From Actinomycetota bacterium (GTDB lineage Bacteria > Actinomycetota > Acidimicrobiia > Acidimicrobiales > GCA-2861595): a stretch of 42,348 bases of DNA. Below are positions 1,708 to 37,430 of the stretch, in pieces. A program made the translations under genes and the position numbers. The stretch spans positions 28,276 through 70,623 of the forward strand of contig PJQG01000076.1 of NCBI GenBank assembly GCA_002861595.1. The letters run 5' to 3'. Position 1 is the first letter of the stretch, and the number at the start of each line of letters is the position of its first letter. The notes under the pieces were generated by a model that did not search any database, was not told the DNA's origin, and saw only the letters and a list, made by a program, of their open reading frames with translations.

Positions 1708-3236
1708 GCGAGCAGGTCGGGCCCAGCGGCGAGGGGTTGGGGCCCCGGCGGGCCTATGAGACGGCGCCGGGTGGGGATGGGCCCCCCGCCTTCGGCGAGG
1801 AGCCGGGGTTGGGGCCCCGGCGGGCCTATGAGACAGTTGTCGGGTTGGAGGTCCACTGCGAGCTGCGCACGGCCACCAAGCTGTTCTGCGCCTGCCGCAA
1901 CGCCTTCGGCGACGACCCGAACACCAACGTGTGCCCCGTCTGCCTCGGGCTGCCCGGGTCGCTCCCGGTGCTCAACGCCCGGGCCGTGGAGCTGGCCATG
2001 CGCATCGGTGAAGCCCTCCACTGCGAGGTGCGCCGCAGCATCTTCCACCGCAAGAACTACTTCTATCCGGACATGCCCAAGGACTACCAGGTCAGCCAGT
2101 ACGACGAGCCCATCAACGTCGACGGCTGGCTGGAGCTGCCCGATGGGTCCCGCGTGGGCATCGAGCGGGCCCACCTGGAGGAGGACACCGGCTCCAACCG
2201 CCACGTCGGCGGCGACGGGCGAATCCACAACGCCGACTACTCCCTCGTCGACTACAACCGGGCCGGCGTCCCCCTGGTGGAGATCGTGAGCCGCCCCGAC
2301 ATCCGCTCGGCCGAGCAGGCCCGGGCCTACGTGAGCGAGCTTCGGGCCATCCTGGTCGCCATCGGTGCCTCCGACGGCAAGATGGAGGAGGGGTCTCTGC
2401 GGGTCGACGCCAACGTTTCGGTCCGCCCCGCCGGCAGCGACCAGCTCGGGACCCGCTGCGAGGTCAAGAACCTCAACTCGCTGCGCTCACTCGGCCGCGC
2501 CATCGACCACGAGGCCGCCCGCCAGTGGGAACTGCTCCAGGCCGGCGAGCGGGTCGTGCAGGAGACCCGGCACTGGAACGAGGCCCAAGGACGCACGGTG
2601 TCCGGTCGCTCCAAGGAGGAGGCCTACGACTACCGGTACTTCCCGGAGCCCGACCTGGTGCCCGTCGACCCCGGCGAGGCGTGGCGGGACGAGGTCCGCC
2701 GGGCCCTGCCCATGCTGCCCGCGGCCCGCCGGGAGCGACTGGCCAGGGCCGCGGGCCTGTCGCCCGCCGGCGTGGCCACCGTCGTCGAGCTGGACCTCGA
2801 CACACTGGTGTTGGCCGCCATCTCGGCCGGGGCGGACGGCCGCCGCGCCGTCAACCGGGCGGCCAACGAGGTGGCCGCGGATCTCGACGGCGCCCGCCGG
2901 CTGGATCCGGCCGCCTTCACCAAGCTCCTGCTGCTGGAGGACGCCGGCAAGCTCACCGCCACCCAGGCCAAGCAGGTCCTGGCCGAGATGCTGGCCAGCG
3001 GGGGCGATCCCGAGGAGCTGGCCGCAGCCCGGGGGTTCAAGGCCATGGAGGCCGCCGAGGTGGCGGCGCAGGTGGACGCCCTCATCGCCGCCCACCCGGG
3101 CGAGTGGGAGCGGTTTCGGGGAGGCGACGCCAAGGTGACCGGCTTCTTCGTGGGGAAGGTCATGAAGGCCACCCAGGGCAAGGCCGACGGCCGGGCGGTG
3201 ACGGCGCTGTTGCAGGAGCGCGCAGAGCTTTCGTGA
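1704..3236 (+). CDS. gatB: Asp/Glu-tRNA amidotransferase subunit B, with a repeat-derived N-terminal extension
   Basis: [33 protein letters not shown]; GTG overlaps the gatA stop; an alternative TTG start at 1809 is possible. Confidence 0.97.
1714..1834 (+). repeat. Coding palindromic element: internally deleted copy (~1714-1752) plus full copy (~1758-1824); exact 30-bp direct repeat at 1733-1762 and 1805-1834
   Basis: 1761-1824 matches the reverse complement of the cimA repeat unit at 56/64 positions (manual alignment); 72-bp period keeps the frame. Confidence 0.9.
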
Positions 3237-4138
3237 CCCGGCGGTCGAGGCGCCGTGGCATGGGAGCGACCATCGCCATGGCGGTGGCCCTCGCGACCCT
3301 CGCCGCCTGTGGCGGCGACAGCGGCGGTGGTGCGGAGGACGGCTCTCCCACCATCCGGGGCCAGGCCGCCAGCTCCTCTACGACTGCCGTCCCTGCCACG
3401 GCGTCGGGGGGCGAGGCAGCGACCACGGCGCCGGTCGCCGGCAGTGCCGCCGCGACCACCACAGCCGGTGGCGCCCGCCGCGCCACGTCGACCACGTCGA
3501 CGAGCCGCGCCGAGGCCACGGGCGGCGCAGCCGCCGCTCCCGCACCGTCGGGCGCCGCCGCCACTCGCCCGGGGCGCTACCGCTACGCCAGCACCGGCAC
3601 CTTCTCGGCCGGCCTCACCGGTGAGCAACGGCGGAGCGGAGAGTCGGTCCTCATCGTGGACCCGCCGGCCGGCGCCGACCAGCACAGCCTGCGGGAGGGC
3701 GACAACCGGTCCACCGAGCAGGTGCTGCGGTTCCAGGCCGACGGCATCTACATCGTGGTCCTCGAGGTGACCGAGCAGGGCCTGGCCAAGGAGTTCCGGC
3801 CCTCACCGCCGGTCCTGGCCTTCCCCTACGGCGCAGCCGCGGGCCGCACGTGGTCCTGGCGCATGACGTCCACCGACGGCAAGACCACGGTGGAGGGCAA
3901 CCTCCGGATCGAGCGGACGGAGTCGGTCCAGGTGGGCTCGGACGCAGTGCCTGCCGTCGTCGTCCGGGCCGCCCTGGCGACGACCGGTGACATCGCCTCC
4001 CGCGGAACGCAGACGCTGTGGGTGGCCGAGGGCCGCCGGCTGGTGGTGCGGGAGCAGTCACGCACCGAAGGGAGCTTTGGCGCCATCTCGTTCCGCTCGA
4101 CGGCCGAGGAGCAGCTTCTTTCCCTGGGCTCCTTGTAA
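3233..4138 (+). CDS. Putative lipoprotein (possibly Tat-exported) with Ala/Thr linker and beta-rich C-terminal domain
   Basis: GTGA overlap with the gatB stop; SRRRG motif, hydrophobic stretch, lipobox LAAC. Confidence 0.75.
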   Translation: MTRRSRRRGMGATIAMAVALATLAACGGDSGGGAEDGSPTIRGQAASSSTTAVPATASGGEAATTAPVAGSAAATTTAGGARRATSTTSTSRAEATGGAAAAPAPSGAAATRPGRYRYASTGTFSAGLTGEQRRSGESVLIVDPPAGADQHSLREGDNRSTEQVLRFQADGIYIVVLEVTEQGLAKEFRPSPPVLAFPYGAAAGRTWSWRMTSTDGKTTVEGNLRIERTESVQVGSDAVPAVVVRAALATTGDIASRGTQTLWVAEGRRLVVREQSRTEGSFGAISFRSTAEEQLLSLGSL

Positions 4139-4276
4139 TCGACCACTGTCCGTGGTACCTTTAGCGCTGTGTTCAACAACCGGCGTTCTGTCTTCTCACA
4201 TTCTGCGTTTTGGTCGCGCGCTGCGCGGGAACATGGCCCCGGCCTGACCAGCCACCGTGACGAAGGAGTAGGAGTG

Positions 4277-5485
4277 ATGGGAAAACTCAATCGCCAACTG
4301 CTGCTGTGCTGCTCGTTGAGCGCCGGCGTGCTGTTGGCCTCGGCGCCGGCGGTGTTCGCCGCTGATCCGCCCGCGCACGGCAACGCCGGCGGCAACGGCA
4401 ACGGCCAGGCCAAGGCGGGCACCTCCGCACCGGCGGCCGGCCAGGCCAACGTGGGGGCCGACCCCGGGCACGCCAGTCCGGGGAACGGTCCGGGCCAGGG
4501 GAACCCCGGTACCGGCAACGCCGGCCAGGGGGCTGCGGCCAACGAGGGCGCGGCCAACCAGGACCACAATCAGGGCCAGGGCCAGGACCAGGACCAGGGC
4601 CAGGGCCAGGGCCAGGGCCAGGGCCAGGGCAACCAGGACCAGGGCAACCAGGACCAGGGCAACCAGGACCAGGGCAACCAGGACCAGGGCCAAGGCGCCG
4701 GGACGGCTCCCCCAGGCAACAACGGGACCATCAAGGTCGATTTCGATGGGGCCGGCCTCGACCGCCGCAACAACGAGACGCACGGCTGCCCGCTCTCCGT
4801 CAAGTTCTTCAACTTCGATCCCGACCAGTGGGTCACCGTCACCTTCAGTGGCCAGGCTCCCACCCGATCTGCGCCCTTCACCGGCGGAAGAGTGAGGATG
4901 GACAACGACGGCAACGCCGTCAAGACCTACGGCGACATCGCGGCTCTGCTGGCCGCTGCCGGCGCCGCTCCCACCAAGAACGGCTATCACCTGAGAGTCG
5001 AGGCGAAGGCCGAGGGCGCTCCCGGAGGGTCGAAGACCAAGGTCGTCTGGATCAAGTGTGCCGTCGCCCCCACGGTCACGACGACCACCGTGGCTCCGAC
5101 GACCACCGCTCCGACGACCACCACGACGGTGCCCGCCGACGATTCGACCTCCGTCGACGGCACACGAGACGCGCAGAACGAGGCATCCGGCATCACGCCC
5201 GGCAACCTCAACTCGAACAGCCGCCTTGCCGTCCTCGGTGAGACCATCGAGCGCAGCCGGGCGACGGACGACGGGACCCGCACTCGCCGGGCCCGGGCCG
5301 CAGCGTCGCCCACTCGGGGCACCAACGCCGATCGCAGGGCGAGGGTCCTCGGCACCACGGTCGAGCGGGCGGGCCTGGCCCGCACGGGGTTGGACGCCTT
5401 GCAGCTCGCGACGCTCGGAGCCCTCGCTCTCTTCGCCGGGTACGCCGCCGTACGGGTGTCGCGCCGGAAGACGGAACAGAGCTAA
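4277..5485 (+). CDS. Sortase-anchored surface protein (LAXTG) with Gln/Gly repeats and a Thr-rich linker
   Basis: AGGAG RBS, signal peptide ending AVFA, C-terminal LARTG + hydrophobic helix + RRK tail. Confidence 0.85.
   Translation: MGKLNRQLLLCCSLSAGVLLASAPAVFAADPPAHGNAGGNGNGQAKAGTSAPAAGQANVGADPGHASPGNGPGQGNPGTGNAGQGAAANEGAANQDHNQGQGQDQDQGQGQGQGQGQGNQDQGNQDQGNQDQGNQDQGQGAGTAPPGNNGTIKVDFDGAGLDRRNNETHGCPLSVKFFNFDPDQWVTVTFSGQAPTRSAPFTGGRVRMDNDGNAVKTYGDIAALLAAAGAAPTKNGYHLRVEAKAEGAPGGSKTKVVWIKCAVAPTVTTTTVAPTTTAPTTTTTVPADDSTSVDGTRDAQNEASGITPGNLNSNSRLAVLGETIERSRATDDGTRTRRARAAASPTRGTNADRRARVLGTTVERAGLARTGLDALQLATLGALALFAGYAAVRVSRRKTEQS
4571..4690 (+). repeat. In-frame tandem repeats: (CAGGRC)x10 followed by (AACCAGGACCAGGGC)x4
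   Basis: Read directly; encodes QG/QD and NQDQG repeats. Confidence 0.95.
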
Positions 5486-5590
5486 CGGCTTCACCGTGTG
5501 ATCGGTGTTGGCATCTCCGTCCTCACCTAGCCCCTCGCAGACGGCCGACGATGCACCTTCGTGTGCCAGGAGCCCGGGGCGAACCTGTGG

Positions 5591-5619
5591 TTGACAACCA
5601 CTCACCGAGGGGATACTCT
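5591..5619 (+). promoter_or_regulatory. SigA-type promoter TTGACA-17-TACTCT for the kinase/regulator operon; a 7-1-7 palindrome at 5587-5601 covers the -35
   Basis: Near-consensus hexamers with 17-bp spacing; GTGGTTG-A-CAACCAC. Confidence 0.7.
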
Positions 5620-5758
5620 CCCTGTTAGTGCCGATGTCAGCTCTGAAGTCGGGTTTTTGCTCGGCAGCGGCCCACATCAACCACTCTCAGTGTCAAAAGG
5701 GGAAAGCGTCGTTCGCTGAAGGAACGGGCGGGCGGCTCCTGGAGATCGAAGGGATGTC

Positions 5759-6517
5759 GTGACGGGCAACGGTTGGAGACGCGGGGGAACGAAGCCGAGG
5801 GCGGCTATCGCGCCGCGTGCCGCCCTTCCGGCGGAGAGGCCATCCGCCGAGGAGGGGGACGTCCTCGGACTGCGGGCGCTGTGTCACGATCTGCGCCACC
5901 CCGCGGCGGTCATCGACGCGCTCGTCGCCGCCGTCCAGGTCGAGTGCGAGCTGCCACCACAGGCCGTCGCCCGGCTCGGGCAGATCGCCTCAGAGGCGAG
6001 GCGGATCTCCGAGCTCTGTCGCCATGTCATGACAGGAGACGGCGGCAGGTCGCCGCTGCTCCGGCTCGACCGCGTCGCCACTGAGGTCGTGCGCAGCGCG
6101 CAGGTGACCCATGCCGGGATCCACATCCTCGCGGAGCGGACCGTCGTCGAGATCGATGACGCCGACGCCCGCCGGATTCTCTGGAACCTGTTGGACAACG
6201 CCTGCCGGGCGTCGGGCCCGAAGGGCGATGTTCTCGTCTCCATCTCCGGCACCGAGAAGGAGGTCCGCCTGGAGGTGGCGGACTCGGGGCCCGGATTCGG
6301 CCAGGGCGAGCCAGGCGCGGCCGCGCTGGGGTTGTCGATCGTGCGGGCCACGGCCAAACGGCACGGGGGGGTGGTGGAGGTCGGCGAGGGCGCGTTGGGA
6401 GGAGCTCTGGTTGCGGTCGTCCTGCCGCCCCCTCGCATCGACCTCGTCAAACGGACAGGACTGGATGAGTGGTTCGGTCCCCAGATGTCCGGGGAAGGCG
6501 AAGGCAGGGCATCGTGA
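5759..6517 (+). CDS. Short cytoplasmic histidine kinase with no sensor or transmembrane region
   Basis: H-box HDLRHP, N-box NLLDNA, G1 DSGPG, G2-like LGLSIV; start uncertain. Confidence 0.85.
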   Translation: MTGNGWRRGGTKPRAAIAPRAALPAERPSAEEGDVLGLRALCHDLRHPAAVIDALVAAVQVECELPPQAVARLGQIASEARRISELCRHVMTGDGGRSPLLRLDRVATEVVRSAQVTHAGIHILAERTVVEIDDADARRILWNLLDNACRASGPKGDVLVSISGTEKEVRLEVADSGPGFGQGEPGAAALGLSIVRATAKRHGGVVEVGEGALGGALVAVVLPPPRIDLVKRTGLDEWFGPQMSGEGEGRAS

Positions 6518-7191
6518 ACGTCGTCATCTGTGACGATCATCAGCTTTTCACCGAGGCCCTGGCCGTCGTCCTCCGGGCCCGTGGCTACCGGGTGGCCGCG
6601 TGCGCCTCGAGGCCGGACGAAGCCGTTGTCGCTGTCCGCACCCGACCGCCCGACCAGCCCGTCGACGTGTGCCTGCTCGACCTGCACTTTCCCGACGGCA
6701 GCGCCATCGATGCCATCGCCGAGATCGTCTTCACGTCTCCGCAGACCCGAGTCGTCGTGCTGTCCGGCTCGACCGACCCGGTCCTCTTCAACTGCGCTCT
6801 CGCGGCCGGCGCCCGAGGTGTGGTGGCCAAAGGCGAGGCGCTCGAGGCGATCCTCTCAGTGCTCGATCGTGTGCACCGGGGCGAGATGGTGGTGCAGGGC
6901 TCGGCGCTGACGACCCTCGCCGAGCTCGTACCCGCGCCAGGGACACCTGTCCAGGAGCTGGCCCGATTCCTCACGGCACGAGAGCGGGAAGTTCTGGCGC
7001 ATCTCGTGCGGGGTCGGAGCTCCGCCGAAGTGGCCTCGGAGATGGGGGTGCGGTACTCGACCGTCCGCACGCACATCCAGAACATCCTCATGAAGCTGGG
7101 AGCGCACTCCAAGCTCGAGGCGGTGGCCCTCGCCATTCATGAAGGCCTCGTGACCATGGAAGTGCCCGTGCGCCGCTCCGACACGGCCTGA
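6514..7191 (+). CDS. NarL/LuxR-family response regulator
   Basis: VVICDDH, LLDLHFPD receiver, LTAREREVL...TVRTHIQNI HTH; GTGA coupling to the kinase. Confidence 0.93.
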   Translation: MNVVICDDHQLFTEALAVVLRARGYRVAACASRPDEAVVAVRTRPPDQPVDVCLLDLHFPDGSAIDAIAEIVFTSPQTRVVVLSGSTDPVLFNCALAAGARGVVAKGEALEAILSVLDRVHRGEMVVQGSALTTLAELVPAPGTPVQELARFLTAREREVLAHLVRGRSSAEVASEMGVRYSTVRTHIQNILMKLGAHSKLEAVALAIHEGLVTMEVPVRRSDTA

Positions 7192-7264
7192 CGCCTGCGG
7201 ACAGGGGCCAGTGGGGCTGGCCGATGTTCGGCACCCGGGTCCTGGTCGGTGCCCCAGGCAGGAC

Positions 7265-7936
7265 TCAGCCCCGGACTGTCGCTCGAAGGCCAGCCCGATA
7301 GGCGACAGCAACGGCCTCGAGACTCGAATGGGCGCCGAGCTTTTTCAGCACGTTGCGCACGTGGGTACGAACCGTGTTGGGCGAAACGTACAGCTGCCGG
7401 GCGATGTGGGCCTTGTCGTGGCCGGCGACCAGGCACGCGAGCACCTCTCGCTCGCGATCACTGAGGCTAGCCACCTTCTCCTCCTCCGGGCTGAGCTGGT
7501 TGGAGTCGGACAGCAGCGATCGAAGGACATCGGTCAGAGTCCTCGGCGGTATCCAGCTTTCGCCCCGGTGCACGCCCCGCACGACCCGGAGTAGGTCCTC
7601 GACGGCAAGGCCCTTGCTCATCACCGCGGAGGCCCCGGCGCGCACGGCGGCACAGGCGGTCTCGGCGTCTTCATGGCAGGTGAGGATGGCGACGCGAGCT
7701 TGGGGATGGTCCTCCCGGAGCTTCTGCGCGAGCTGGATACCGTCAGTGGTGCCGAGGTCGACGTCCAGCAGTATCAGCTCCGGGTTCTGGACGTCGGCGA
7801 TCGCTTCGGCCTGTGCCGCGGAGGTGGCCATGCCCACCACCTGGAGGTCCGGCTCAGCGTTGAGTATCGCCGCCAGCGCGTCCAGGAACACGCGGTGGTC
7901 ATCGACGAGCAGGATGCGTGCGGGGGACACTTCCAC
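7265..7936 (-). CDS. NarL/LuxR-family response regulator
   Basis: [22 protein letters not shown]...TVRTHVRNV; start chosen from TACCCT-7 nt-GTG. Confidence 0.92.
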
Positions 7937-8089
7937 ACCTTCCAGGGTACGAGCCGGGGGAGCCACATGCATCCGCGGGAGAGCTCTTCATGCGTTTGCA
8001 CGACCGAACGGAACACGATGACTGGGAGCGGGTGCGTCGCGGTGGCGGCCACCGCTCCTTGTCGCTCACCACCCCCTATTCTCGTGGCC

Positions 8090-9781
8090 ATGCCGAGCGA
8101 CATGAGGCCCCGTTCGCGGGAGGTGACCGAGGGGTACGAGCGGGCGCCGGCCCGGGCCATGCTGCGGGCCGTCGGGATGACCGACGAGGATTTCGGCAAG
8201 GCCCAGGTGGGCGTGGCCTCGTCGTGGAACGAGGTGACACCCTGCAACATGCCGCTGGCCCGCTTGGCCCAGCACGCCAAGGAGGGGGTGCGGGCGGCGG
8301 GTGGCTTCCCCCTGGAGTTCGTCACCATCGCCGTGAGCGACGGCATCTCGATGGGCCACGAGGGCATGCGCGCCTCGCTCGTCAGCCGGGAGGTGATCGC
8401 CGACTCGGTGGAGACGGTGATGCACGCCGAGCGCTTCGACGCCATGGTCACCCTCGCCGGCTGCGACAAGTCCCTCCCCGGGATGCTCATGGCGTCGGCC
8501 CGGCTGAACCTGCCCTCGGTCTTCCTCTACGGCGGCAGCATCCTCACCGGCCGCATCCCCGGCGACGCTTCCGGTCGTGCTCTCGACATCGTGAGCGTCT
8601 TCGAGGGCGTGGGTGGGCGGGCGGCGGGAGCGCTCACCGACGAGGAGCTGGCCTTGATCGAGCGCCACGCCTGCCCCACCGAGGGCAGCTGCGCCGGCAT
8701 GTTCACGGCCAACACCATGGCCGCGGTCGGCGAGGCCCTCGGCATGTCCCTGCCGGGAAGCGCCACCCCGCCCGCCGTCGACCCCCGCCGGGAGGAGGTG
8801 GCTCACGGCTGCGGTGAGGCGGTGATGGCCATGCTCGAGGCAGGCATCCGGCCCCGCCAGATCATGACCAAGGAGGCGTTCGAGAACGCCATAGCCGTGG
8901 CCATGGCGCTGGGTGGTTCCACCAACGCCGTGCTCCACCTCCTGGCCATCGCCAACGAGGCGCAGGTCGAGCTGACGTTGGAGGACTTCGACCGCGTGGG
9001 CCGGCGGGTGCCGCACCTGGCCGACACCAGGCCGCACGGCCGGTACCACATGACCGACCTCGACCGCATCGGCGGGGTGCCGGTCATCATGCGGGAGCTG
9101 CTCGACGCCGGCTTGTTGCACGGCGGCTGCCTCACCGTGACCGGTCGTACCGTGGCCGAGAACCTCCAGGCGCTGAACCCGCCGGCACCTGACGGCGCCG
9201 TCGTCCATCCCCTGTCGGCGCCCATCCACGTCGATGGCGGCATCGCCATCCTGTCGGGCTCGCTGGCGCCGGCCGGGGCGGTGGTGAAGGTGGCCGGGAT
9301 CGACGTCGACCGCTTCGAGGGGACGGCCCGGGTGTTCGACGGCGAGCAGGGCGCCCTCGACGCCGTCCTGGCCGGGTCGATCACCCCGGGCACCGTGCTG
9401 GTGATCCGCTACGAGGGGCCCAAGGGTGGTCCCGGCATGCGGGAGATGCTGGCGGTGACGGGCGCCATGAAAGGCGCCGGCCGGGGCGGCGACTGCGCCC
9501 TCCTCACCGACGGTCGGTTCTCCGGCGGGACCCACGGGTTCTGCGTCGGCCATGTCGCCCCCGAAGGGGTCGACGGCGGGCCGATCGCGTTCGTGCGCGA
9601 CGGCGACCGCATCGTGATCGACGTGGCCGCCCGGCGCATCGACCTGGCCGTCGACGAGGCCGAGCTGGCCCGCCGCCGCCTCGACTGGAAGCTCCCTGAG
9701 CCCCGGTACACGACCGGCGTGCTGGCCAAGTACGCCCGCCTGGTCACCGGCGCCGAGCGCGGGGCGGTAACCGGGCCGTAG
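8090..9781 (+). CDS. ilvD: Dihydroxy-acid dehydratase
   Basis: [40 protein letters not shown]; leaderless start after TATTCT (8077-8082). Confidence 0.97.
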
Positions 9782-9783
9782 CG

Positions 9784-10959
9784 TCAGGCAGCCGCGAACG
9801 CCGGCACCCGAACACCGGGTGGATGCGTCGTGAAGGTGCGGCCTTGGGGATCGGTGATGACCAGCGTGCCGTCGGGCTCCAGCTTCTCCGACCACCCCGG
9901 TCTATGGCCGAGATGGTGGTGGCGGGAGCACTTGAGGACGAGGTTGGCGAGGTTGGTCGGCCCGTCGGCCTCCACCGGGATGACGTGGTGGCCTTCGCAC
10001 CACCATGGCGGGCGATCACAGCCGGGGTGGCGGCAGTGCTGGTCTCGCAGCACCAGGGCGGCGAAGAGGGCGTCGGAGATGGTGCGGGTGGCGGTGCCGT
10101 AGTCCAGGATCACCGAGCGGCCCTGGGTCACGACGCGATGGACCTTGGCGTCGCACAACAGCGCAGCGACGGTTTCGGAGGGCACGGGCCCGCCGTGGGC
10201 CATGCGACCGGGCATGGCTTCCAGCAGGTCCTCGTAGTCGACCACCACGTTGAGATGGGGCCGGGCCCGGCCCACGGGCTGGGCGCCCTGGTGGTCCAAG
10301 AAGAACCGGCAGATGTCGGTGAGGGCATCGGCTCGCCGCTGCTTGGCACAGCGCTGCTCGCCCTCGGCGTCGGGGGAGGTGGCCAGGCGCAGGGCGGCTT
10401 CGAGCACTGCTCCAGCGAGCGAGTCATAGGAGCCGTCGAGGCGGCGGCGGTCGTCCAGCAGCTTGGACAGGTGCAGCTCCGAGGCCGCCGGGGTGGGATC
10501 CGGGGGATCGGCCAAGGCCTTCGCTCGCGCCGCCCAGGCCTGCATGGCCGAGGCGGCATCGGCCACCGACAGCTCCACCAGCGCCGGCACCACCTCGGCC
10601 TCGTGCTCGGCGAACAGCTCGGCAGCCTCGTCCTTCACGTTGGCCACCACCACCTGCACCTGGCCGCTCGACAACGAGCCGTCCCGCCACGCCGCGGCGG
10701 TGACGGGGAGCTCCCGCAGGCGCCGGGCCGTGCGCGACATCGAGGATGCCGATGCAGCGCTCATGCGGGCCCGGTGGCGCAGCCAGGCGGTGAGGCAGGT
10801 GGCGCCATCGACGGCCCACATCCCCGCCTTGTCGAACGCAGCGACGCTCTCGGTGATCTTGGCCGCCAGGCGCTCCATGGCCGCGATGGCCTCGACGATG
10901 TCCTCGCCGAAGGGGCCGATCTCCACCTCCTCGATGGCTGCCGCCAGCGCTGAAACCAT
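9784..10959 (-). CDS. DUF222/HNH endonuclease (13E12 repeat-family-like)
   Basis: QRRADAL, LLCDA, RDQHCRHPGC...HH...GPTNLANLVLKCSRHH; start placed from the promoter. Confidence 0.9.
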   Translation of the reverse strand: MVSALAAAIEEVEIGPFGEDIVEAIAAMERLAAKITESVAAFDKAGMWAVDGATCLTAWLRHRARMSAASASSMSRTARRLRELPVTAAAWRDGSLSSGQVQVVVANVKDEAAELFAEHEAEVVPALVELSVADAASAMQAWAARAKALADPPDPTPAASELHLSKLLDDRRRLDGSYDSLAGAVLEAALRLATSPDAEGEQRCAKQRRADALTDICRFFLDHQGAQPVGRARPHLNVVVDYEDLLEAMPGRMAHGGPVPSETVAALLCDAKVHRVVTQGRSVILDYGTATRTISDALFAALVLRDQHCRHPGCDRPPWWCEGHHVIPVEADGPTNLANLVLKCSRHHHLGHRPGWSEKLEPDGTLVITDPQGRTFTTHPPGVRVPAFAAA

Positions 10960-10965
10960 GTCATC

Positions 10966-10994
10966 ATCGTACATCTGTTCGATCACGACGTCAA
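10966..10994 (-). promoter_or_regulatory. Promoter TTGACG-17-TACGAT (leaderless, ATG 6 nt downstream) overlapped by a LexA SOS box TCGAAC-AGAT-GTACGA (10967-10982)
   Basis: One mismatch to the actinobacterial LexA consensus TCGAAC-N4-GTTCGA. Confidence 0.85.
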
Positions 10995-11025
10995 GCAGAA
11001 ACCCTTGAAAACAAAGGAGTTCTGC
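10995..11025. terminator. Imperfect hairpin between the 11040 gene and the HNH promoter
   Basis: GCAGAA...CCTTG-AAAA-CAAAGG...TTCTGC. Confidence 0.4.
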
Positions 11026-11039
11026 CCGTCTCCGGCGTG

Positions 11040-11909
11040 TCAGCGGTTGCGCACAGCCTGGAGCTGGCGGACCTCGAAGTCCTCGATCCGCCCCTCGGTG
11101 CTCAGCCCGTCGAGGCTGCCCTTGCGGCCGGCCAGCTCCCAGGTGGCCGTCCAGCGTTCGGTCACCACGACGTCGTAGTGGTCGGCGTTGCTCCACGAGT
11201 GGGTGATGGTGCCGTCGGGCCAAGGCTTGCCGGCGCTGCGGTACGGGCCTGACATCCCGGTGTCGTCGCCCCAGTCGACGAAGATCTGGCCCGTGGCGTT
11301 GATCACCAGCAGGCCGAGCGGTGTCTGGTGCTCGAAGCGCTCGGCCAGCTTGGTGTTGGTCTCCAGGTACCCGAGCTTGCCGGCCAGCATGTACCCAGGA
11401 GCGATCCTCGGCTTGGGCTTGTCCAGCCGGTCCTCGAGCTCGACCCGCCAGAAGTCGCCGGCGATCACCGCCGGCGACGGCGGCGGCGCCACCCGTGCGG
11501 CTCCCGGGCATGGCGGGTAGTTGGCGTACTGGTACTCCCAGAGAATGTTGCCGGTGTCTTCTATCGCTCCCGCCTGGGCGGCACTCTCCGCCGGGATGCG
11601 AGCGATCGTGAGGCACGGCGTCCCGTCTGGGAGCATGCCGATCCGCGGCCGCCTCGCATAGAAGACCTGCCCCTGATGTTTGGCTTTCCGGACCCGCTGC
11701 CCAGCGGTGGACTGCTGCGTGTCCCGAGAACTCCCCGGTGCTCCCCCGGTCACCGTCGTCTGCACTGAATCGCCGCCCTTGCCTCGCTGAACAGTATGGC
11801 GCTCTCCGGAAGACGACGCCTCGGTTGTTTCACTGCCAGCTGAGAACACAGGACTTGTGCCCGTGGTGAGCATGGTGACCACTGAAACGGCGACAATCAG
11901 GCGGCGCAT
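11040..11909 (-). CDS. Secreted protein with a C-terminal PKD/Ig-like domain
   Basis: Signal peptide; VDWGDD...GKPWPDGTITHSW...YDVVVTERWTATW. Confidence 0.7.
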   Translation of the reverse strand: MRRLIVAVSVVTMLTTGTSPVFSAGSETTEASSSGERHTVQRGKGGDSVQTTVTGGAPGSSRDTQQSTAGQRVRKAKHQGQVFYARRPRIGMLPDGTPCLTIARIPAESAAQAGAIEDTGNILWEYQYANYPPCPGAARVAPPPSPAVIAGDFWRVELEDRLDKPKPRIAPGYMLAGKLGYLETNTKLAERFEHQTPLGLLVINATGQIFVDWGDDTGMSGPYRSAGKPWPDGTITHSWSNADHYDVVVTERWTATWELAGRKGSLDGLSTEGRIEDFEVRQLQAVRNR

Positions 11910-12520
11910 GGATCCCTCGGTGTCGCGGCGACCGGCCGGTTCCCTTCATCGTGGATCATCCACGCTGTGGGGTTCAGATCTTTGGCGTTGCGCTCTGGGG
12001 CCAGGGGCACGAGTTGCACAAACGCACGGTTCGGTGGGGGGGCGTTGACAGCAGTGGCCGAGAAGTCCTGCTCGACCTCCGCGTATATGCAGTTCGGCGA
12101 AGAGGAGACGATCTTGGTGACGGTGGTCCTCCTGGCGCCTGGGTCAGATGAGACGTTCTTGAAGCCGTTCTTGATCGTCGTCAGCCAGACCTCGACCTGC
12201 TCGTCCAACTCCTCGGTGTTGTAGATGGCGAGAAGGTGCTCTGCGGCCGCGGGCACCAGCTGCTTTTTCTGGACGATGATCTTTGTCGCCTGAGCATCGA
12301 CTTCGTCGAGGGCCTTCAGGACCGCGTTGATGTAGGGCTCGTCGATCTTCTCGGGGATGGTGCTGACGTCGATCGGCGTGGTGGAGGTGGTGGTGGTGCC
12401 ACGGCGGTCGCCCGAGACCGGCGTCGGTTCCTCGGCAACCGGGGGGTCGCCGCCGCCGGAGCAGGCGCCGGCGACGAGCACGAGCGCTACCAGAGCAGCG
12501 GCGGCTGACCGGGAACCCAC
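11897..12520 (-). CDS. Hypothetical lipoprotein
   Basis: Lipobox AGAC, Thr-rich linker; overlaps the start of the next gene. Confidence 0.75.
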   Translation of the reverse strand: MGSRSAAAALVALVLVAGACSGGGDPPVAEEPTPVSGDRRGTTTTSTTPIDVSTIPEKIDEPYINAVLKALDEVDAQATKIIVQKKQLVPAAAEHLLAIYNTEELDEQVEVWLTTIKNGFKNVSSDPGARRTTVTKIVSSSPNCIYAEVEQDFSATAVNAPPPNRAFVQLVPLAPERNAKDLNPTAWMIHDEGNRPVAATPRDPCAA

Positions 12521-12543
12521 GCGTCACACACTAACGATGCTTT

Positions 12544-13293
12544 TCATCCCCGGTCAACCACAGCCGCGAAGGCCTCGGCCACGGCCTCGTGGCCGGCGGT
12601 GCTGGGGTGGAAGCCGTCGGCCCCGAACAGCGACGCCTCACGCCCAGCGGAGCGGACCGCCAGCCCGGCGGCGTGGAGGTCCACCACCTCGGCCCCCTCT
12701 GCGGCGGCCACCTCGGCGATCACCTTGTTGTAGGCGCCCACGCCGAGGCGCACGAGCTCGGGGCTGGGGACGAAGCCGGCGGGCAACGGGCACCGCGCGC
12801 CCGACGCCGGCCGCGGGTTCGGGAGGCAGGCCAGGTAGGCGGGCAGGCGGTCGAGCGGCGGCGTGTTGGCCACCAGCACGCGCGTGGCACCGCTCCGGCG
12901 CAAGCCGTGCACGAGCTTGGTCAACTGGCTCTCGTAGGTCGCCAGCGGGACCCGGGCGATGAGGTCGTTGACGTTGAGCCACACCGTGACCAACGTCGGC
13001 GAGAGGCGCACCGCCTCGGCCAGCTGCCGCTCGAGGGCGGTGGCCACCGTCGCCCCCGGGATGCCGAGGTTGACGAACTTGGCGCCGTCCGGGAGGGCGC
13101 GGCGGCGGAGCACCTCCGGCCATGCCTGGGTGGCGGGCGCGTCGGCGCCGAAGCCGACCGTCTCGCTGGCCCCGACGGCGACGTAGACGACGGCCTCGGC
13201 GTGGGGGCCCGCAGCCGTCTTCGATCCCGATGAACAGCCACCGAGCCCGAGGGCGCCCATCAGAGCCGCCGCCGCCGCCCGCCGTACCCTCAT
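12544..13293 (-). CDS. SGNH/GDSL hydrolase lipoprotein
   Basis: YVAVGAS block I, NLGIPG, LNVND, DGFHP; lipobox LGGC; TACGAT-6 nt-ATG. Confidence 0.9.
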   Translation of the reverse strand: MRVRRAAAAALMGALGLGGCSSGSKTAAGPHAEAVVYVAVGASETVGFGADAPATQAWPEVLRRRALPDGAKFVNLGIPGATVATALERQLAEAVRLSPTLVTVWLNVNDLIARVPLATYESQLTKLVHGLRRSGATRVLVANTPPLDRLPAYLACLPNPRPASGARCPLPAGFVPSPELVRLGVGAYNKVIAEVAAAEGAEVVDLHAAGLAVRSAGREASLFGADGFHPSTAGHEAVAEAFAAVVDRG

Positions 13294-13315
13294 GACACGA
13301 TCGTACGGACCGCGG

Positions 13316-13344
13316 TTGCCGGACTCGTACGCGAGTGCCACAAT
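13316..13344 (+). promoter_or_regulatory. ilvBNC promoter TTGCCG-17-CACAAT
   Basis: Hexamer spacing; lies 8 nt before the leader ATG. Confidence 0.6.
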
Positions 13345-13352
13345 GGCAGCCG

Positions 13353-13388
13353 ATGTCCGCCCCTCGCACCCTCGTACTCATCACCTAG
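13353..13388 (+). CDS. ilvB operon leader peptide MSAPRTLVLIT
   Basis: Run of Leu-Val-Leu-Ile control codons, followed by a hairpin and a terminator. Confidence 0.85.
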   Translation: MSAPRTLVLIT

Positions 13389-13413
13389 CGCACGCAGCCT
13401 CCCGCGTGCGCCC

Positions 13414-13446
13414 ACGACCTCCCAGCCGGGAGGTCGTTTCCTTTTC
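13414..13446 (+). terminator. ilvB attenuator terminator (preceded by hairpin 13388-13411)
   Basis: ACGACCTCCC-AGCC-GGGAGGTCGT then TTCCTTTT. Confidence 0.88.
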
Positions 13447-13467
13447 TGAACCAAGGAGCAATCAACC

Positions 13468-15198
13468 ATGAAGCTGACCGGGGCGCAGGCCCTCATCAAG
13501 AGCCTGGAGATGGAGGGCGTGGAGGTCATGTTCGGCCTGCCCGGCGGCGCCATCCTCCCGGTGTACGACCCGATCATCGACTCGACCATCCGCCACATCC
13601 TCGTGCGTCACGAGCAGGGGGCGGGGCACATGGCCGAGGGCTACGCCCACGTCACCGGCCGCCCCGGCGTGGCCATGGTCACCAGCGGGCCCGCCGCCAC
13701 CAACATCGTCACCCCGCTGTGCGACGCCTACCTGGACTCCATCCCCATGGTCGTCATCACCGGCCAGGTCGGCCTGGCCGCCATCGGCACCGACGCCTTC
13801 CAGGAGTGCGACACCACCGGGATCACCATGTCGGTCACCAAGCACAACTGGCTGGTCACGGATGCCGCCGACATCCCCCAGATCGTGCGGGAGGCCTTCC
13901 ACGTGGCCACCAGCGGCCGCCCCGGACCGGTGCTGATCGACATCCCCAAGGACGTCAGCGCCAGCCAGACGATGGACTGGTACTGGCCCGACTCGGTGGA
14001 CCTGCCCGGCTACAAGCCCGCCACCATCGGCGAGCCGCACCTCATCAAGGAGGCGGCCCGCATGATCGGCGAGAGCCGTCGTCCGGTCATCTACGCCGGC
14101 GGGGGGATCCTCAAGGCCCGGGCCGCAGAGGCGCTGAAACAGCTGGTCGACGTCACCGGCATCCCCGTCGTCACCACCCTCATGGCCCGCGGCGCCTTCC
14201 CCGACGACCACGACCTGTGCCTGGGCATGCCCGGCATGCACGGCAACTACACGGCCGTCACCGCCATGCAGAGGTCCGACCTGCTCATCGCCCTCGGCAG
14301 CCGCTTCGACGACCGCGTGACCGGCAAGGTGCCGGCCTTCGCCCCGGAGGCCAAGATCATCCACGTCGACATCGACCCCGCCGAGCTCGGCAAGGTGCGA
14401 CGCGCCGACGTGGGCATCGCCGGCGACTGCCGTCTGGTGATCGAGGAGCTGGTCAAGGCCATCAACGCCATGGGCGGCTCCGAGAGCCAGGCTGACCGGA
14501 AGGATTGGATCGCCCAGGTGCACGCGTGGCAGGAGCAGTTCCCGCTGCACTACGACCAGTCGTGGGACGAGGGTGGCAGCCTCAAGCCCCAGTTCGTCAT
14601 CGAGCAGCTGCGGGACGCCACCCCCGACGACGCCATCGTGTGCTCGGGTGTCGGCCAGCACCAGATGTGGGCGTCGCAGTACTGGAAGTTCAACCACCCC
14701 TACACCTGGGTCAACTCCGGGGGCCTGGGCACCATGGGCTTCGCCGTCCCCGCTGCCATCGGGGCCAAGGTGGGTCGGCCCGACCGCATGGTGTGGGCCG
14801 TCGACGGCGACGGCTGCTTCCAGATGACGGCCCAGGAGCTCGTCACCGCCTCGAGCGAGCGCATCCCCGTGAAGATCGCCATCCTCAACAACGCCTATCT
14901 GGGCATGGTGCGCCAGTGGCAGGAGCTGTTCTACGAGGAGCGCTACTCGGAGGTGTACCTGTCGCCGGACCTGCCGGACTACGTGAAGTGGGCGGAAGCC
15001 ATGGGTTGCGTGGGGCTCAAGGTGGAGCACCCCGAGGAGGTGCTGCCCGCCATCGAGAAGGCCAACGAGATCGACGACCGGCCCGTCGTCATCGACTTTC
15101 GCACCGACAGCTCCGAGAAGGTGTACCCCATGGTGGCGGCCGGGACGTCCAACGACCTGGTCATCCTCGACCCCTCGCAAGGGGAGGGCGGGCGCTGA
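13468..15198 (+). CDS. ilvB: Acetolactate synthase large subunit
   Basis: [32 protein letters not shown] ThDP motif. Confidence 0.98.
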
Positions 15199-15743
15199 TG
15201 TCACCCGCGGCCACCGCTCTCAAGCACCACACGCTGTCGGTCCTGGTCGAGAACAAGGCCGGCGTCCTCACCCGGGTCGCCTCGCTGTTCGCCCGTCGCG
15301 GCTTCAACATCTACTCGCTGGCCGTGGCCCCCACCGACGACGAACGCTTCTCCCGCATCACCATCGTGGTCGATGTGGAGTCCAAGCCCCTCGAGCAGAT
15401 CACCAAGCAGCTGAACAAGCTCGTCAACGTGGTGGAGATCAACGAGCTGGCACCCGACGAGTCGGTCGAGCGTGAGCTCGTGCTCCTGAGCGTGCGGGCC
15501 GACGCCGGGGGAAGCCGCGGCCAGGTCATCGAGCTCGTGCAGGTGTTCGAGGGCAAGATCGTGGATGTGGGGCCGGAGAAGCTGACCATCATGCTGGCCG
15601 GCACGCCGCAGAAGGTCGACGACTTCGAGGAACTCATGAGGCCGTATGGCATCGTGGAGGTGCAGCGCACCGGCCGGGTGGCGCTGCCCAAGTTGGAGCG
15701 CCAGGCACCGCGCCTGCGCAGCGTGAGCGGAAAGGTCGGATAA
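15198..15743 (+). CDS. ilvN: Acetolactate synthase small (regulatory) subunit
   Basis: LSVLVENKAGVL...RRGFNI, KQLNKL, RTG; TGATG coupling. Confidence 0.97.
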   Translation: MSPAATALKHHTLSVLVENKAGVLTRVASLFARRGFNIYSLAVAPTDDERFSRITIVVDVESKPLEQITKQLNKLVNVVEINELAPDESVERELVLLSVRADAGGSRGQVIELVQVFEGKIVDVGPEKLTIMLAGTPQKVDDFEELMRPYGIVEVQRTGRVALPKLERQAPRLRSVSGKVG

Positions 15744-15746
15744 CTG

Positions 15747-16775
15747 ATGGTCGCCAAGATCTCCTACGAGAACGACGCCGATGCCGGGCTGATCGCCGGC
15801 CGCAAGGTCGCCGTCATCGGGTACGGCTCGCAGGGCCACGCCCACGCCCTCAACCTGAAGGACTCGGGCATCGACGTGCGGGTCGGCCTGCGCGAGGGCT
15901 CCTCCTCGAGGGCCAAGGCCGAAGCCGCCGGGCTGGCCGTCCGCTCGGTCGCCCAGGCCAGCGCCGAGGCCGACCTCGTCATGATCCTGCTCCCCGACAC
16001 CGAGCAGCAGGCGGTGTACGACGAGTCCATCGCCCCGAACCTCTCCGACGGGGACGCCCTGTTCTTCGCCCATGGGTTCAACATCCGCTTCGGCCTCATC
16101 ACCCCGCCTCCAGGCGTGGACGCCGCCATGGTGGCCCCGAAGGGCCCCGGGCACCTCGTGCGCCGCACCTTCACCGAGGGCGGCGGCGTGCCGTCGCTCA
16201 TCGCCGTGGCCCAGGACGCCTCGGGCAAGGCCCGGGACCTGGCGCTGTCGTACGCCCATGCCATCGGCGCCACCCGGGCCGGCGTGCTCGAGACCACCTT
16301 CGAGGAGGAGACCGAGACCGACCTGTTCGGCGAACAGGTCGTGCTGTGTGGCGGCGTCACCGCGCTGGTGATGGCCGGCTACGAGACGCTCGTCGGCGCC
16401 GGCTACCAGCCCGAGTCCGCCTACTTCGAGTGCCTGCACGAGCTCAAGCTCATCGTCGACCTCATGTACGAGAACGGCATCGCCGGCATGCGCTTCTCCA
16501 TCTCCGACACCGCCGAGTACGGCGATCTCACCCGGGGCCCGCGCATCATCAACGACGCCGTCAAGGCCGAGATGGGCCGCATCCTCGAGGAGATCCGCTC
16601 GGGCAGGTTCGCCGAGGAGTGGATCGCCGAGAACCGCGCCGGGCGGGCCCGCTTCGAGGAGCTGCGGGCCGCCGGCAAGGAGCACCCCATCGAGAAGGTG
16701 GGCGCCGAGCTGCGGGCCATGATGCCGTTCATCTCCGCCGGCAAGGGCCGTCCCGAGGACGTCAGCGGCGGCTAG
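15747..16775 (+). CDS. ilvC: Ketol-acid reductoisomerase
   Basis: [36 protein letters not shown]. Confidence 0.98.
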
Positions 16776-16792
16776 CCCCACGCCCCGACGCC

Positions 16793-16849
16793 CCCGCCGT
16801 TGCAGTACATAGCGGGCCTTTTCAGCCCCCTATGTACTCCCAAGGCGGG
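16793..16849. repeat. REP-like palindrome, copy 1 (AGTACATAG...CTATGTACT core)
   Basis: Imperfect hairpin; aligns with the reverse complement of 37384-37432. Confidence 0.85.
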
Positions 16850-16878
16850 TGTCACACCCCGGTGCTGGACCAACGGGC

Positions 16879-17727
16879 ATGCTCGATCAGCACATCGCCG
16901 AGCTCGCAAGCCGGCAGTACGGCTTGATCTCCCGCCCGCAGGTTCTCGCCCTCGGTGGGACCGACGACTTCATCAAGCAGCGGTTGGGTGCGCCACGCTG
17001 GGAGAAGGCGGCCCCCGGTGTCTACGCGCTACCGGGCTTGCCCAGGTCCTGGCGCCGCTCGCTGTGGCTTGCCCATCTCGATATCGGGCCGGCCTCGGTG
17101 GTCTCGCACGAAGCGGCAGCGGCCCTCCACGGATTGCTCCTGTTCCCGCCCGGACCGGTGACCCTCACCGTCGCGCACGGCGATCACGAGCGATGGAGCC
17201 GGCTCCGGCGGGTGCACCAGTCGACCGACCTCCGGCCGGCGCATGTCACAAGGGCTGACGGCCTTCCGGTGACGACGGTGGCCCGCACACTCTTCGATCT
17301 GTCGGCGGTAGCCCACCAGGAGCGCCTCGGACGATCGATCGATGATGCTCACGTCAGGCGCATCTGCCGCGTCGAGGAAGTTCGTTCGCTCTATGACCAG
17401 CTTCGCCGGCCCAGGAAGCCCGGCATGCGGCAACTCGGCCAACTCCTCGTGCCTCGCGGACCGGGTTACGTTCCGCCGGAGAGCTTGCTCGAATGCCGGC
17501 TGCTCGAGGTGTTGGCCGACGGGGCGCTGCCTGCGCCTGTCAGGCAGTACGTCCTGCCCTGGCGCGAGAAGGCCAAGGAGCGAGTGGATCTTGCGTTTCC
17601 TGACCACAGGATCATCGTGGAGGGTGACGGCCGGCGATGGCACAGCCGGATGGACCAGATGGCCACCGATCGTCGGCGCGACCGCGAGGCGCTGAACCAG
17701 GGCTGGCGGCCGTACCGCTTCGTGTGG
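16879..17727 (+). CDS. AbiEi-like N-terminal wHTH + DUF559/Vsr-like endonuclease protein; 3' end apparently damaged (no own stop; the frame continues to 19167)
   Basis: LASRQYGLISR, VSHEAAAALHGL, TTVARTLFDL, ESLLE, VDLAFP..IIVEGDG..WH, DRRRD, GWRPYRF; the end given is where family resemblance stops. Confidence 0.75.
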
Positions 17728-17808
17728 CTCCTCGCCGGGGCGACGGCCAGGCCGGCCGGCGAGGCCGGCCGGATGACCAGGGAGCTTCGGCGGGCGATGC
17801 CGAAGAAG

Positions 17809-20185
<2,377 letters not shown>

Positions 20186-29179: not shown

Positions 29180-29854
29180 GTGGAACGCAGTGTAGGCGGT
29201 GTGGGCGTGCTCGACAAGGCCGTCTCCATTCTCGACGCCCTGGAGCCCGGGCCGCTGTCGCTGAACCAGCTGGTGGCCGCCACCGGCATCTCCCGCGCCA
29301 CCACCCACCGCCTGGCCTCGGCCCTCGAGCACCACGGTTTCGTGGCACGCGACCCCGGTGGCCGGTTCACCCTCGGAGCCCGCCTCACCCGCCCCTCCCT
29401 GGCCGAGGCGGCCCGCCCGGCGCTGGAGGCTTTGCGGGACGCGACGGGGGAGAGCACCCAGCTCTACGTCCCCCGCAACGGCAGCCGGGTGTGCGTGGTG
29501 TCCCTGGAGTCGCCCCACAGCCTGCGCACCATCGTGGCCGTCGGTGCCGTCCTGCCGCTGGACAAGGGCTCGGCCGGCAGGGCCCTGCTGGCGAGCCTGG
29601 CCGCCGATCCCGAACTTTCCCGGCGGGGCTGGGCGCAGAGCGTCGAGGAGCGGGAGCGGGGCGTGGCTTCGGTCAGCGCGCCGGTGTGGCGGGACGGCGA
29701 GGTGGTGGCCGCAGTGTCGGTGTCGGGGCCGGTGGACCGCACCAGCCGGACGCCCGGGCGGCGCTACGCGACCGACGTGAAGGCGGCGGCGAGGGCCGTG
29801 GAGGCGGCCATGGGCTGGTCCCCCTGGTGTTCGAGTGCAGAAGACCGCACATAG
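29180..29854 (+). CDS. IclR-family regulator divergent from leuCD (NdgR/LtbR-like)
   Basis: [39 protein letters not shown]; TAGTCT-6 nt-GTG. Confidence 0.93.
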
Positions 29855-29860
29855 TGCGGC

Positions 29861-30724
29861 CTACTGCACACGAAGCAGGCCGGCGCGCTCGGCCACACCC
29901 GTGCAGGCCTCGAGGAGCCCGGGCACGAAACGGCCGGGGTCGGTGACACAGGACCCGTGGTCGCCGTCCACGTTGACGACGGCGGCGCCGGGGATGGCTT
30001 CGGCGAGGCGGAGCTGGCGCCGGGGGCCCACCACCTCGTCCCGGGCGGTGACGACGACGGCCGTGGGCACGTCCACCTCGCCGATCCAGTCGTGGGAGCG
30101 GAAGCGCCCGATGGCCCAGCCGGCCTCGAGGATGGCGGTGGTGTCGTTGCGCTGCATCTCCGACAGCCCCCACGCCGCTAGCGGTCCGCCTGCCAGCCGC
30201 CGGCGGATCACGCGGCTGCTCAGCTCGCGGCGCAGGGGCGCGGGCGTGACCCGGGCCGCCAGCGACAGGCCGAGCAGGCTGGAGAAGTAGATGCGCGACC
30301 CCAGGTCCAGGCCGGAGAAGCTGCGGCCGGTGGCGCACAGCACCAGGCCGGCGACCAGGCTGCGGTGGCGGCGCCACATGAGCTGGGCCACGGGGCCGCC
30401 CATCGAGTACCCGACGGGGATGAGGCGGTCGATGCCGAGGACCTGGGCCAGCGCGGCGGCGTCGTCGGCGCAGTCCTCCAGGCGGAACGGTCGTCTGGAC
30501 CGGATGCCCCGGCCGTGACCCCGGTGGTCGAGGGCGACGACCCGGAAGCGCTCCGACAGCGCTTCGTAGGCCGTGAACCAGTTCAGGTCGGCGGTGACGG
30601 TCCAGCCGTGGAGCAGGAGGACGGTGGGCGCGCCCGGCGGCCCGGCTGCCTCCCGGACGAAGGTACGGCCCCGCCCGGGCAGGACAAGGCAGCGACCCGG
30701 CGGCAGCGGTGGCCCCGCAGGCAT
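29861..30724 (-). CDS. Alpha/beta hydrolase
   Basis: LLHGW, DHRGHG, GYSMGG nucleophile elbow. Confidence 0.9.
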   Translation of the reverse strand: MPAGPPLPPGRCLVLPGRGRTFVREAAGPPGAPTVLLLHGWTVTADLNWFTAYEALSERFRVVALDHRGHGRGIRSRRPFRLEDCADDAAALAQVLGIDRLIPVGYSMGGPVAQLMWRRHRSLVAGLVLCATGRSFSGLDLGSRIYFSSLLGLSLAARVTPAPLRRELSSRVIRRRLAGGPLAAWGLSEMQRNDTTAILEAGWAIGRFRSHDWIGEVDVPTAVVVTARDEVVGPRRQLRLAEAIPGAAVVNVDGDHGSCVTDPGRFVPGLLEACTGVAERAGLLRVQ

Positions 30725-37398: not shown

Positions 37399-37430
37399 CG
37401 GGCGGTTTCGGCCCGCTATGTACTCGCAAC
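37384..37430. repeat. REP-like palindrome, copy 2 (perfect 15-bp stem 37389-37403/37411-37425)
   Basis: GAGTACATAGCGGGC-N7-GCCCGCTATGTACTC; supplies the hydrolase TAG stop. Confidence 0.9.

Follow-up and report, generated by a model that had tools for sequence, protein, structure and literature searches.

A gene that fuses an AbiEi-like fold to a Vsr-type nuclease appears to be the dedicated caretaker of a dispersed family of palindromes in the genome of a soil actinobacterium (Acidimicrobiia; Acidimicrobiales; GCA-2861595), a link to which we give a probability of about 0.8. The gene product probably keeps these repeats up and overwrites them, a role previously described for no enzyme other than a transposase unrelated to it. 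The analysis centred on a 42,348-nucleotide stretch of contig PJQG01000076.1 (positions 28,276 to 70,623; assembly GCA_002861595.1), referred to here as the window, together with the genome that contains it (G000, 86% complete) and those of its relatives; all comparisons were made among kin and MAGs. A sequence-only reading of the window had proposed that the nuclease gene and a palindrome beside it form a unit resembling a REP and its RAYT transposase, in which the protein recognises and disperses the hairpin. Much of this proposal has stood: the palindrome exists in far more than two copies and is commoner beside nuclease genes than beside other genes, related genes are framed by cognate palindromes, solo copies match the resident gene and no RAYT was found in 22 family genomes. 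What gave way is the co-variation of protein and palindrome at fine scale.

Table 1 Coordinates of the features discussed, counted from the first nucleotide of the window.
Feature	Position	Strand	Remarks
ilvC	15747..16775	+	constant upstream neighbour of the nuclease clade
Copy 1, type-A palindrome (22-3-22 family), decayed	16797/8..16844		upstream flank of the nuclease gene
TGTCAC word	16850..16855	+	in the interval from palindrome to ATG; probable promoter element
Gene for AbiEi-fold protein with Vsr/DUF559/EDxHD-type nuclease	16879..17727	+	pseudogene, cut at codon 283 of ~305
Sequence past the deletion junction	17728..17808	-	tentatively the 5' stub of a ~1.3 kb gene
Class-V aminotransferase gene	17809..19137	-	downstream neighbour; start uncertain
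Family F palindrome, unrelated	29830..29874		17 copies; G002 has type A at the same site
Family E palindrome, unrelated	35936..35975		55 copies; even-length centre
Copy 2, near-perfect type-A palindrome	37384..37430		

Both hairpins lie where the sequence-only reading had put them. Copy 1 is separated by 22 nt from the ilvC stop codon and by 34 nt from the ATG of the nuclease gene (about 30 bp had been claimed), and its left arm is short by one base, which is present in a sister strain. Copy 2, which is inverted relative to copy 1 and matches it at 85% over 40 nt, takes up the TAG stop codon of an alpha/beta-hydrolase gene (36532-37398) as part of its left arm; at the equivalent site, G002 has two type-A copies. 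When folded against shuffled sequences, copy 1 scored z -5.8 and copy 2 z -7.3, with none of 200 shuffles folding that well, and chance hairpins were ruled out by this folding combined with genome-wide pattern and profile counts for which the controls gave 0. The TGTCAC word between copy 1 and the start codon is probably a promoter element, since TGTC[AG]C occurs no more than 60 nt from the start codon in 54 of 129 homologues, as opposed to 4 of 129 in a control window.

It had also been noted that no AbiEii toxin partner is adjacent, and this is borne out by the neighbours, which are ilvC upstream and, on the opposite strand downstream, an aminotransferase gene that we take to be serC-like. 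A search with PF08843 (AbiEii) gave 0 matches in G000, G012 and G014. AbiEii-like matches are present elsewhere in G002 and G017; the one at C58:66952-67479 of G002 is non-adjacent, lying ~25 kb from the nuclease gene, past the copy-2/gltX-like region. At the downstream neighbour itself, the serC-like gene has its final ~30 nt repeated two or three times, in degenerate form, beside the stop codon in G002 (L053, 1370-1545) and G001 (L046, 1420-1545).

Homologues of the nuclease protein, the closest of which are records from Acidimicrobiales or Actinomycetota, are ~305 amino acids long. The match of the window gene ends at codon 283 (position 17727), from where its frame continues for 480 codons, antisense through serC, to 19167. 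In the same place G001 and G002 have the end of the gene, two more palindromes and ~1.3 kb of extra sequence. The window gene is a pseudogene, a status that the sequence-only reading had missed: a deletion removed its last ~22 codons along with the downstream palindrome, which explains why a palindrome is now found upstream only. From their position, the 81 nt past the junction may be what is left of the gene that fills the ~1.3 kb in G001 and G002, which we take from its motifs to be D-Ala-D-Ala carboxypeptidase-like; blastn gave no link between the two. An assembly artefact was ruled out as the cause of the truncation by a contig from run X1, possibly the source sample, that crosses the 17727 junction without difference at a depth of 111, making a mis-join unlikely. 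In contigs of X2 and X3, position 17727 leads onward into a palindrome, and X2 carries a 1-nt deletion at 17069 in place of the truncation.

The remaining copies of the gene in this genome are damaged too. Contig C13 carries a nuclease gene with a type-B palindrome on both sides and three frameshifts, which are absent in X2; C85 retains 34 codons from the 3' end of a gene, and a type-C copy follows immediately past the stop codon; and C53 has a distant fragment flanked by a fourth family, D. Thus, with the window gene itself broken, no intact member was found in the G000 assembly. An HMM match on C88 (E 1e-5) has no palindrome and was omitted as doubtful; C49, which begins at a contig end, lacks a downstream palindrome. 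The gene upstream of the type-B cassette on C13 (L290:2396-3150) is a member of a repeat-protein family that reaches ~28 matches per genome among relatives; the empty C13 site was not located in G001-G003, where matches to a multi-copy neighbouring gene dominated. Sister-strain reads at the window locus and at C13 were examined for live excision or loss of the cassette, and no clean skip of a palindrome or cassette was seen; one X2 contig skips 32 nt within the upstream copy of C13, at a depth of 8 and with a 30-nt side that make it too weak to count.

Copy 2 had been described as a solo copy; it is instead one of 57 in the genome, and the count of hairpins genome-wide, which had been suggested as a check, thus came out far above two. 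A strict pattern, composed of fixed outer 8-mers and 21 free bases, retrieved 35 copies from G000 and 0 with the pattern reversed, while a two-arm profile (22-nt arm, spacers of 0-8 nt) retrieved 57, with 0 in the reversed genome; lone half-sites found with the arm profile numbered 3, against 2 in the control. The copies fall into three types, A (17, including both of those in the window), B (25) and C (15). Their stems are conserved, as had been claimed, but no free divergence of the loop is seen: 55 of the 57 copies have a 3-nt spacer, one has 2 nt and one 4 nt, and copy 1 has decayed. Symmetric double changes in the two arms exceed chance in type A (11 versus 5.2 expected) and type B (9 versus 1.9), an excess that relatedness among copies can inflate, and show no excess in type C; one-sided arm changes are the majority in all three (47, 41 and 43). 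Across 162 arms of the wider clade the outer GAG..AT is most conserved and positions -8 to -5 least. One protein subclade has an even-length site, so that geometry tracks protein clade.

The distribution of the copies is strongly biased towards the ends of genes. Using our own codon-based gene calls (2023 genes in G000), 53 of the 55 copies that could be placed come after at least one gene end, and gaps between divergent genes hold just 2 of these 55, compared with 250 of 1013 wide gaps in all. A stop codon lies close by (copy within -20 to +50 nt) for 44 of the 57 copies. Six, among them copy 2, have a 15-nt overlap with the stop. Neither a GTAG nor a CGTC tag was found in the arm profile and flanks of the 57 copies.

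Further families of similar size are present in G000: E (55 copies), F (17), G (16) and D (4). Families D and G have AbiEi-nuclease partners in G000 or its relatives; for family G, the similarity is to repeats flanking paralogues in G001 and G005. No cognate genes for families E and F were identified among 27 paralogue loci, a survey to which unpublished genomes contributed three newly fetched loci and three earlier ones.

Several other repeats were noted in passing. A ~67-nt GC-rich repeat occurs in the window at 1761-1824, 27648-27715, 34232-34298 and 34307-34373, the last two in tandem; its first 40 nt have 7 matches in the genome, and by inspection it is outside families A-G. Short coding tandem repeats lie at 4557-4692 and 22826-22942 (units of 12-15 nt and 18 nt). 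Three related intergenic elements of G000 (C22:7051, C84:1419 and C76:54242) presumably resemble c-di-GMP-I riboswitches. In addition, three sets of contig ends (C40/C54/C63/C76; C48/C64/C65/C75; C13/C37/C62) share an identical 45-57 nt beside CTAG, and are probably the termini of unassembled insertion sequences.

The association of gene and repeat was then assessed across homologues. From 189 loci we retained 129 that were distinct and full-length with 200 nt of flank (60 were dropped); the set includes four loci from unpublished genomes (L005, L014, L017 and L023). At 101 of these 129 loci the two flanks share a repeat, compared with 5 of 91 controls taken from far flanks and 8 of 637 non-cognate pairs, as predicted if AbiEi-DUF559 paralogues are flanked by cognate palindromes; at 28 no repeat is common to both flanks. 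Within G000, four of four surviving ends of three close nuclease genes or remnants carry the palindrome, which among the 2023 called genes lies upstream of 26, downstream of 60 and on both sides of none; the palindrome is accordingly commoner beside nuclease genes than beside gene ends at large. In 8 of 10 close pairs, picked by hand and including L005 from an unpublished genome in two of them, divergence between the two flanks of a single gene is lower than divergence between orthologous flanks.

The same correspondence extends to solo copies, which match the flank of the resident gene in 9 of 10 cases in G007, 28 of 32 in G014, 43 of 64 in G017 and 27 of 47 in G012, and the 14 other genomes gave 0 matches to the G014/G017 pattern. 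Palindromes are present (6-64 copies) in each of the 13 family genomes that have a homologue of at least 50% identity. Among the nine without such a homologue, six hold 0-2 copies; in the other three (G004, G013 and G016), 77-85% complete, there are 7-17 copies and no close gene turned up. Nineteen genomes of other families have 0 copies. As the pattern was derived from the flanks of these genes and the genomes are kin, this match between copy number and gene is descriptive and not a statistical test. The unpublished genomes G004, G009, G010, G011 and G018 are included in the family-genome, solo-copy and PF01797 tallies and in the trees; the counts for G007, G012, G014 and G017 and the analysis of overwriting in G001 and G002 are independent of them.

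To examine overwriting, the sites that the strict pattern retrieves in G002 (34 clusters, 22 of them syntenic on both sides) and in G001 (37 clusters, 28 syntenic on both sides) were mapped onto G000 by their flanks; three non-A rows of G001, a genome with 7% contamination, were dropped as probable contaminant contigs. This gave 35 distinct sites that are type A in these sister species. In G000, 11 of them have type A as well and 12 have a different family (C 5, B 3, E 2, D 1, F 1); the remaining 12 show no catalogued repeat, and at some of these a visibly decayed copy is left. From occupancy across the genome, another family would be expected at 1.4 of 24 sites. In a matched comparison, a non-A family is present at 12 of 20 G000 junctions with a repeat in the relative (a count that retains the three rows dropped elsewhere) versus 4 of 41 neighbouring conserved junctions without one (Fisher p 7e-5), and none of those four control junctions carries B or C. 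Switched copies are often in register, with gap lengths of 64 versus 65 and 93 versus 96 nt, and only 2 G000 junctions hold two families. Since D, E and F share no sequence with type A, plain homologous conversion cannot explain four of the 12 switched sites.

Neither a target duplication nor a sharp insertion boundary was readable at empty sites, where the comparators, at 80-90% identity, are too diverged in the stretches between genes. Two G000 sites (C42:7396-7442 and C17:10738-10759) look like scars, with the outer arm ends joined and the centre gone, where G001 or G002 has whole copies. In the unpublished genome G010 (L227), the empty copy-2 site ends in sequence that resembles the outer left arm, a single case, hinting at arm-like sequence as a possible starting point for insertion or conversion.

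The main rival to rewriting by a caretaker, which we regard as unlikely, is that copies are inserted independently by the protein or some other factor and that the host keeps one hairpin at each of ~200 useful gene ends (a rough estimate from the site survey, not a measurement), as a terminator or mRNA-stabilising stem. A type switch would then mean that one copy was lost and the site later occupied anew, without templated overwriting. This would fit the concentration of copies around stop codons and their scarcity in divergent gaps, the presence of the unrelated families D, E and F at type-A sites, and the 12 of 35 shared sites that are empty or decayed in G000. It is harder to square with switched copies that lie in register with almost constant gap lengths, or with the concerted evolution of the two flanks of a gene.

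A selfish cassette, in which the gene and its two palindromes are mobile together and solo palindromes are MITE-like by-products, is a good deal less probable. The nuclease unit is absent at ilvC-serC in G003 and G005, there is a genus-level duplicate at C13 and a remnant at C85, and genomes contain up to 11 protein matches, with paralogues of one genome bearing different repeats, all of which would suit mobility. Against this, ilvC remains the upstream neighbour in 14 of 19 clade rows, across several genera (from a quick tree of 66 rows), within-genome paralogues are mostly 30-40% identical and hence not recent copies, and the structure model of the protein, described below, contains no transposase or recombinase fold.

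The relationship between protein and palindrome is looser than strict co-variation would require. Co-variation, which the sequence-only reading had put forward as a test, holds in the 66-row tree for the outer arm motif and for whole clades, and fails at fine scale: neither a tblastn ranking nor a careful tree of 24 rows grouped the two type-B loci. In the latter, C13 is sister to the type-A proteins (support 100/99), and a sister grouping of C13 with L065, the other type-B locus, is rejected (p-AU 0.016), and strict co-variation with it. It may be that type B is ancestral, or that the flank of L065 was overwritten.

As had been read from the sequence, the protein is a fusion of an AbiEi-like winged-helix protein and a nuclease of the DUF559/Vsr kind. 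In the structure model (pLDDT 92), residues 1-194 are predicted to match the whole of AbiEi (6y8q; Z 14.2, rmsd 3.8, 185 aligned; Foldseek E 3e-6); with PF13338 the window gene falls below the cut-off and the C13 gene above it. Residues 200-283 are modelled as a Vsr-type domain, matching I-Bth0305I (3r3p; Z 7.5, rmsd 3.6, 75 aligned), Vsr (1cw0; Z 6.7, rmsd 3.0, 80 aligned) and 3hrl (Z 6.1, rmsd 2.7, 68 aligned), modest scores of 6-7.5 in a range that common folds can reach. A profile comparison pairs the nuclease His and Asp with H213 and D222 of I-Bth0305I in a weak match (E 0.38). Putative catalytic residues are kept almost without exception in the 129 full-length homologues (L002 numbering: E206 in 127, D238 in 128, E249 in 128, D251 in 126, H256 in 129 and D265 in 129), and dN/dS of 0.10-0.25 in 14 of 14 pairs indicates purifying selection on the nuclease family.

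Could the protein simply be an AbiEi-derived repressor or chromosome organiser, with the palindromes as mere binding sites and the nuclease domain incidental? The site geometry is nearly that of the AbiEi operator (22-3-22 versus 23-3-23) and the upstream copy adjoins a conserved promoter-like word, but such a network would hardly place its copies after stop codons and shun divergent gaps, nor would it call for near-invariant putative catalytic residues. Moreover, whole sets of sites change sequence between genera while keeping their length, for which binding alone is insufficient, and we give this explanation little credence. That a RAYT or another host process spreads the repeats, leaving the nuclease gene a passenger or orphan antitoxin, is very improbable and largely refuted: RAYTs are known to move repeats of this kind (PMC3733652; bioRxiv 2021.07.10.451892) and AbiEii-like matches do occur elsewhere in two relatives, but the Y1 transposase/RAYT family (PF01797) had no match in any of 22 family genomes, among which 11 are at least 90% complete with at most 5% contamination, no other called G000 gene is framed on both sides, and AbiEii was not found in three of the genomes that carry the repeats.

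The caretaker system is REPIN-RAYT-like at the population level, yet it is no member of that group. As with REPtrons and TIRtrons (PMC3733652; bioRxiv 10.1101/2021.07.10.451892; bioRxiv 10.1101/2024.10.14.618302), a mostly single-locus, apparently vertically kept enzyme gene is framed by its own palindromes, same-type copies are dispersed extragenically, several systems share a genome, and copies are fewer where the gene is missing. Types also change at conserved sites, as do REPINs that REPORTH terms 'overwritten' (bioRxiv 10.1101/2024.10.14.618302). The enzyme, however, is AbiEi plus a Vsr-type nuclease where a RAYT is an HUH Y1 transposase, and the repeat is a single 22-3-22 palindrome without the GTAG/CGTC tetranucleotide tag that defines a REP end (PMC3733652). 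Wrong enzyme and missing tag place the system outside the group, and its hosts are Acidimicrobiales-type actinobacteria in which no Y1 transposase was found. Our literature search, mostly without subscription papers, returned no description tying the AbiEi-nuclease family to repeats.

Similarly, the system uses the fold and site geometry of AbiEi, yet is no AbiE toxin-antitoxin pair. The model reproduces the whole two-domain fold of this type IV antitoxin, a wHTH followed by a C-terminal domain (6y8q), and the inverted repeat just upstream of the gene has nearly the same geometry, with its conserved part at the outer arm. The AbiEi operator has 23-bp arms 3 bp apart with one monomer per arm and a conserved outer ~11 bp, on which the winged helix is predicted to sit (PMC3985639); the C-terminal domains have been proposed to interact (PMC7319586). 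Unlike AbiEi, the protein studied here has an additional C-terminal nuclease domain and no AbiEii partner, and its site lies downstream of the gene as well, with tens of copies past stop codons.

The nuclease also resembles EDxHD homing enzymes, and is not intron-borne. I-Bth0305I, for which the roles of residues including H213 and D222 have been described, joins a Vsr-type domain to a DNA-binding module, acts as a dimer, covers ~60 bp and cuts a pseudo-palindrome (PMC3239194), and its H213 and D222 are the residues in the weak alignment above. I-Bth0305I, though, resides in a group I intron, binds through NUMOD repeats and targets the intron-less allele, whereas the gene here is free-standing and intergenic, its DNA-binding module is AbiEi and its presumed target is a repeat family. 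It lies between two stop codons, and its neighbours are whole both with and without it.

How might such a caretaker work? Slightly on the side of probable, in our judgement, is that it binds the double-stranded palindrome and drives rewriting by cut and repair; for cutting followed by templated repair as the actual chemistry, our confidence falls a little short of even. Being fixed at 22-3-22, the geometry fits a double-stranded site of the AbiEi kind better than the single-stranded hairpin of a RAYT. Two monomers would bind the two 22-bp arms as AbiEi does, each placing its winged helix over the conserved outer part of the arm and its C-terminus at the centre. Given the arm and spacer geometry of AbiEi and the proposed contact between its C-terminal domains, a nuclease added at the C-terminus would sit over the centre, so that two Vsr-type domains may meet over the 3-bp spacer and nick or cut there, most likely on imperfect or foreign copies. 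Host repair would then rebuild the site from a cognate copy or from the sister arm, homogenising copies, overwriting older types and occasionally seeding new sites. The upstream copy could double as an autorepression operator, and the host may tolerate the system because hairpins just past stop codons would act on transcription or mRNA ends. In its most extended and doubtful form, the proposal is that each paralogue recognises a palindrome of 47 bp in double-stranded DNA, cleaves degenerate or rival ones at the centre and has these rewritten to its own sequence, with paralogues competing for a common set of sites at gene ends across actinobacterial chromosomes. This would be an antitoxin-derived, protein-guided form of editing and a convergent counterpart of REPIN-RAYT, with homing-like chemistry and no transposase.

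AbiEi/DUF559 fusions form a large and unexplained actinobacterial family, often with several members per genome, and would in this way gain a testable role. They would also be a possible source of REP-like repeats where a lineage has no detected RAYT, and the parallel with REPIN-RAYT suggests that the lifestyle of a repeat with its caretaker arose twice, from unrelated enzymes. The predicted geometry, with a monomer on each arm and the nuclease over the 3-bp centre, makes in-place overwriting simply testable by biochemistry, and the many natural pairs of protein and site may be drawn on directly as DNA binders or nucleases with long sites.
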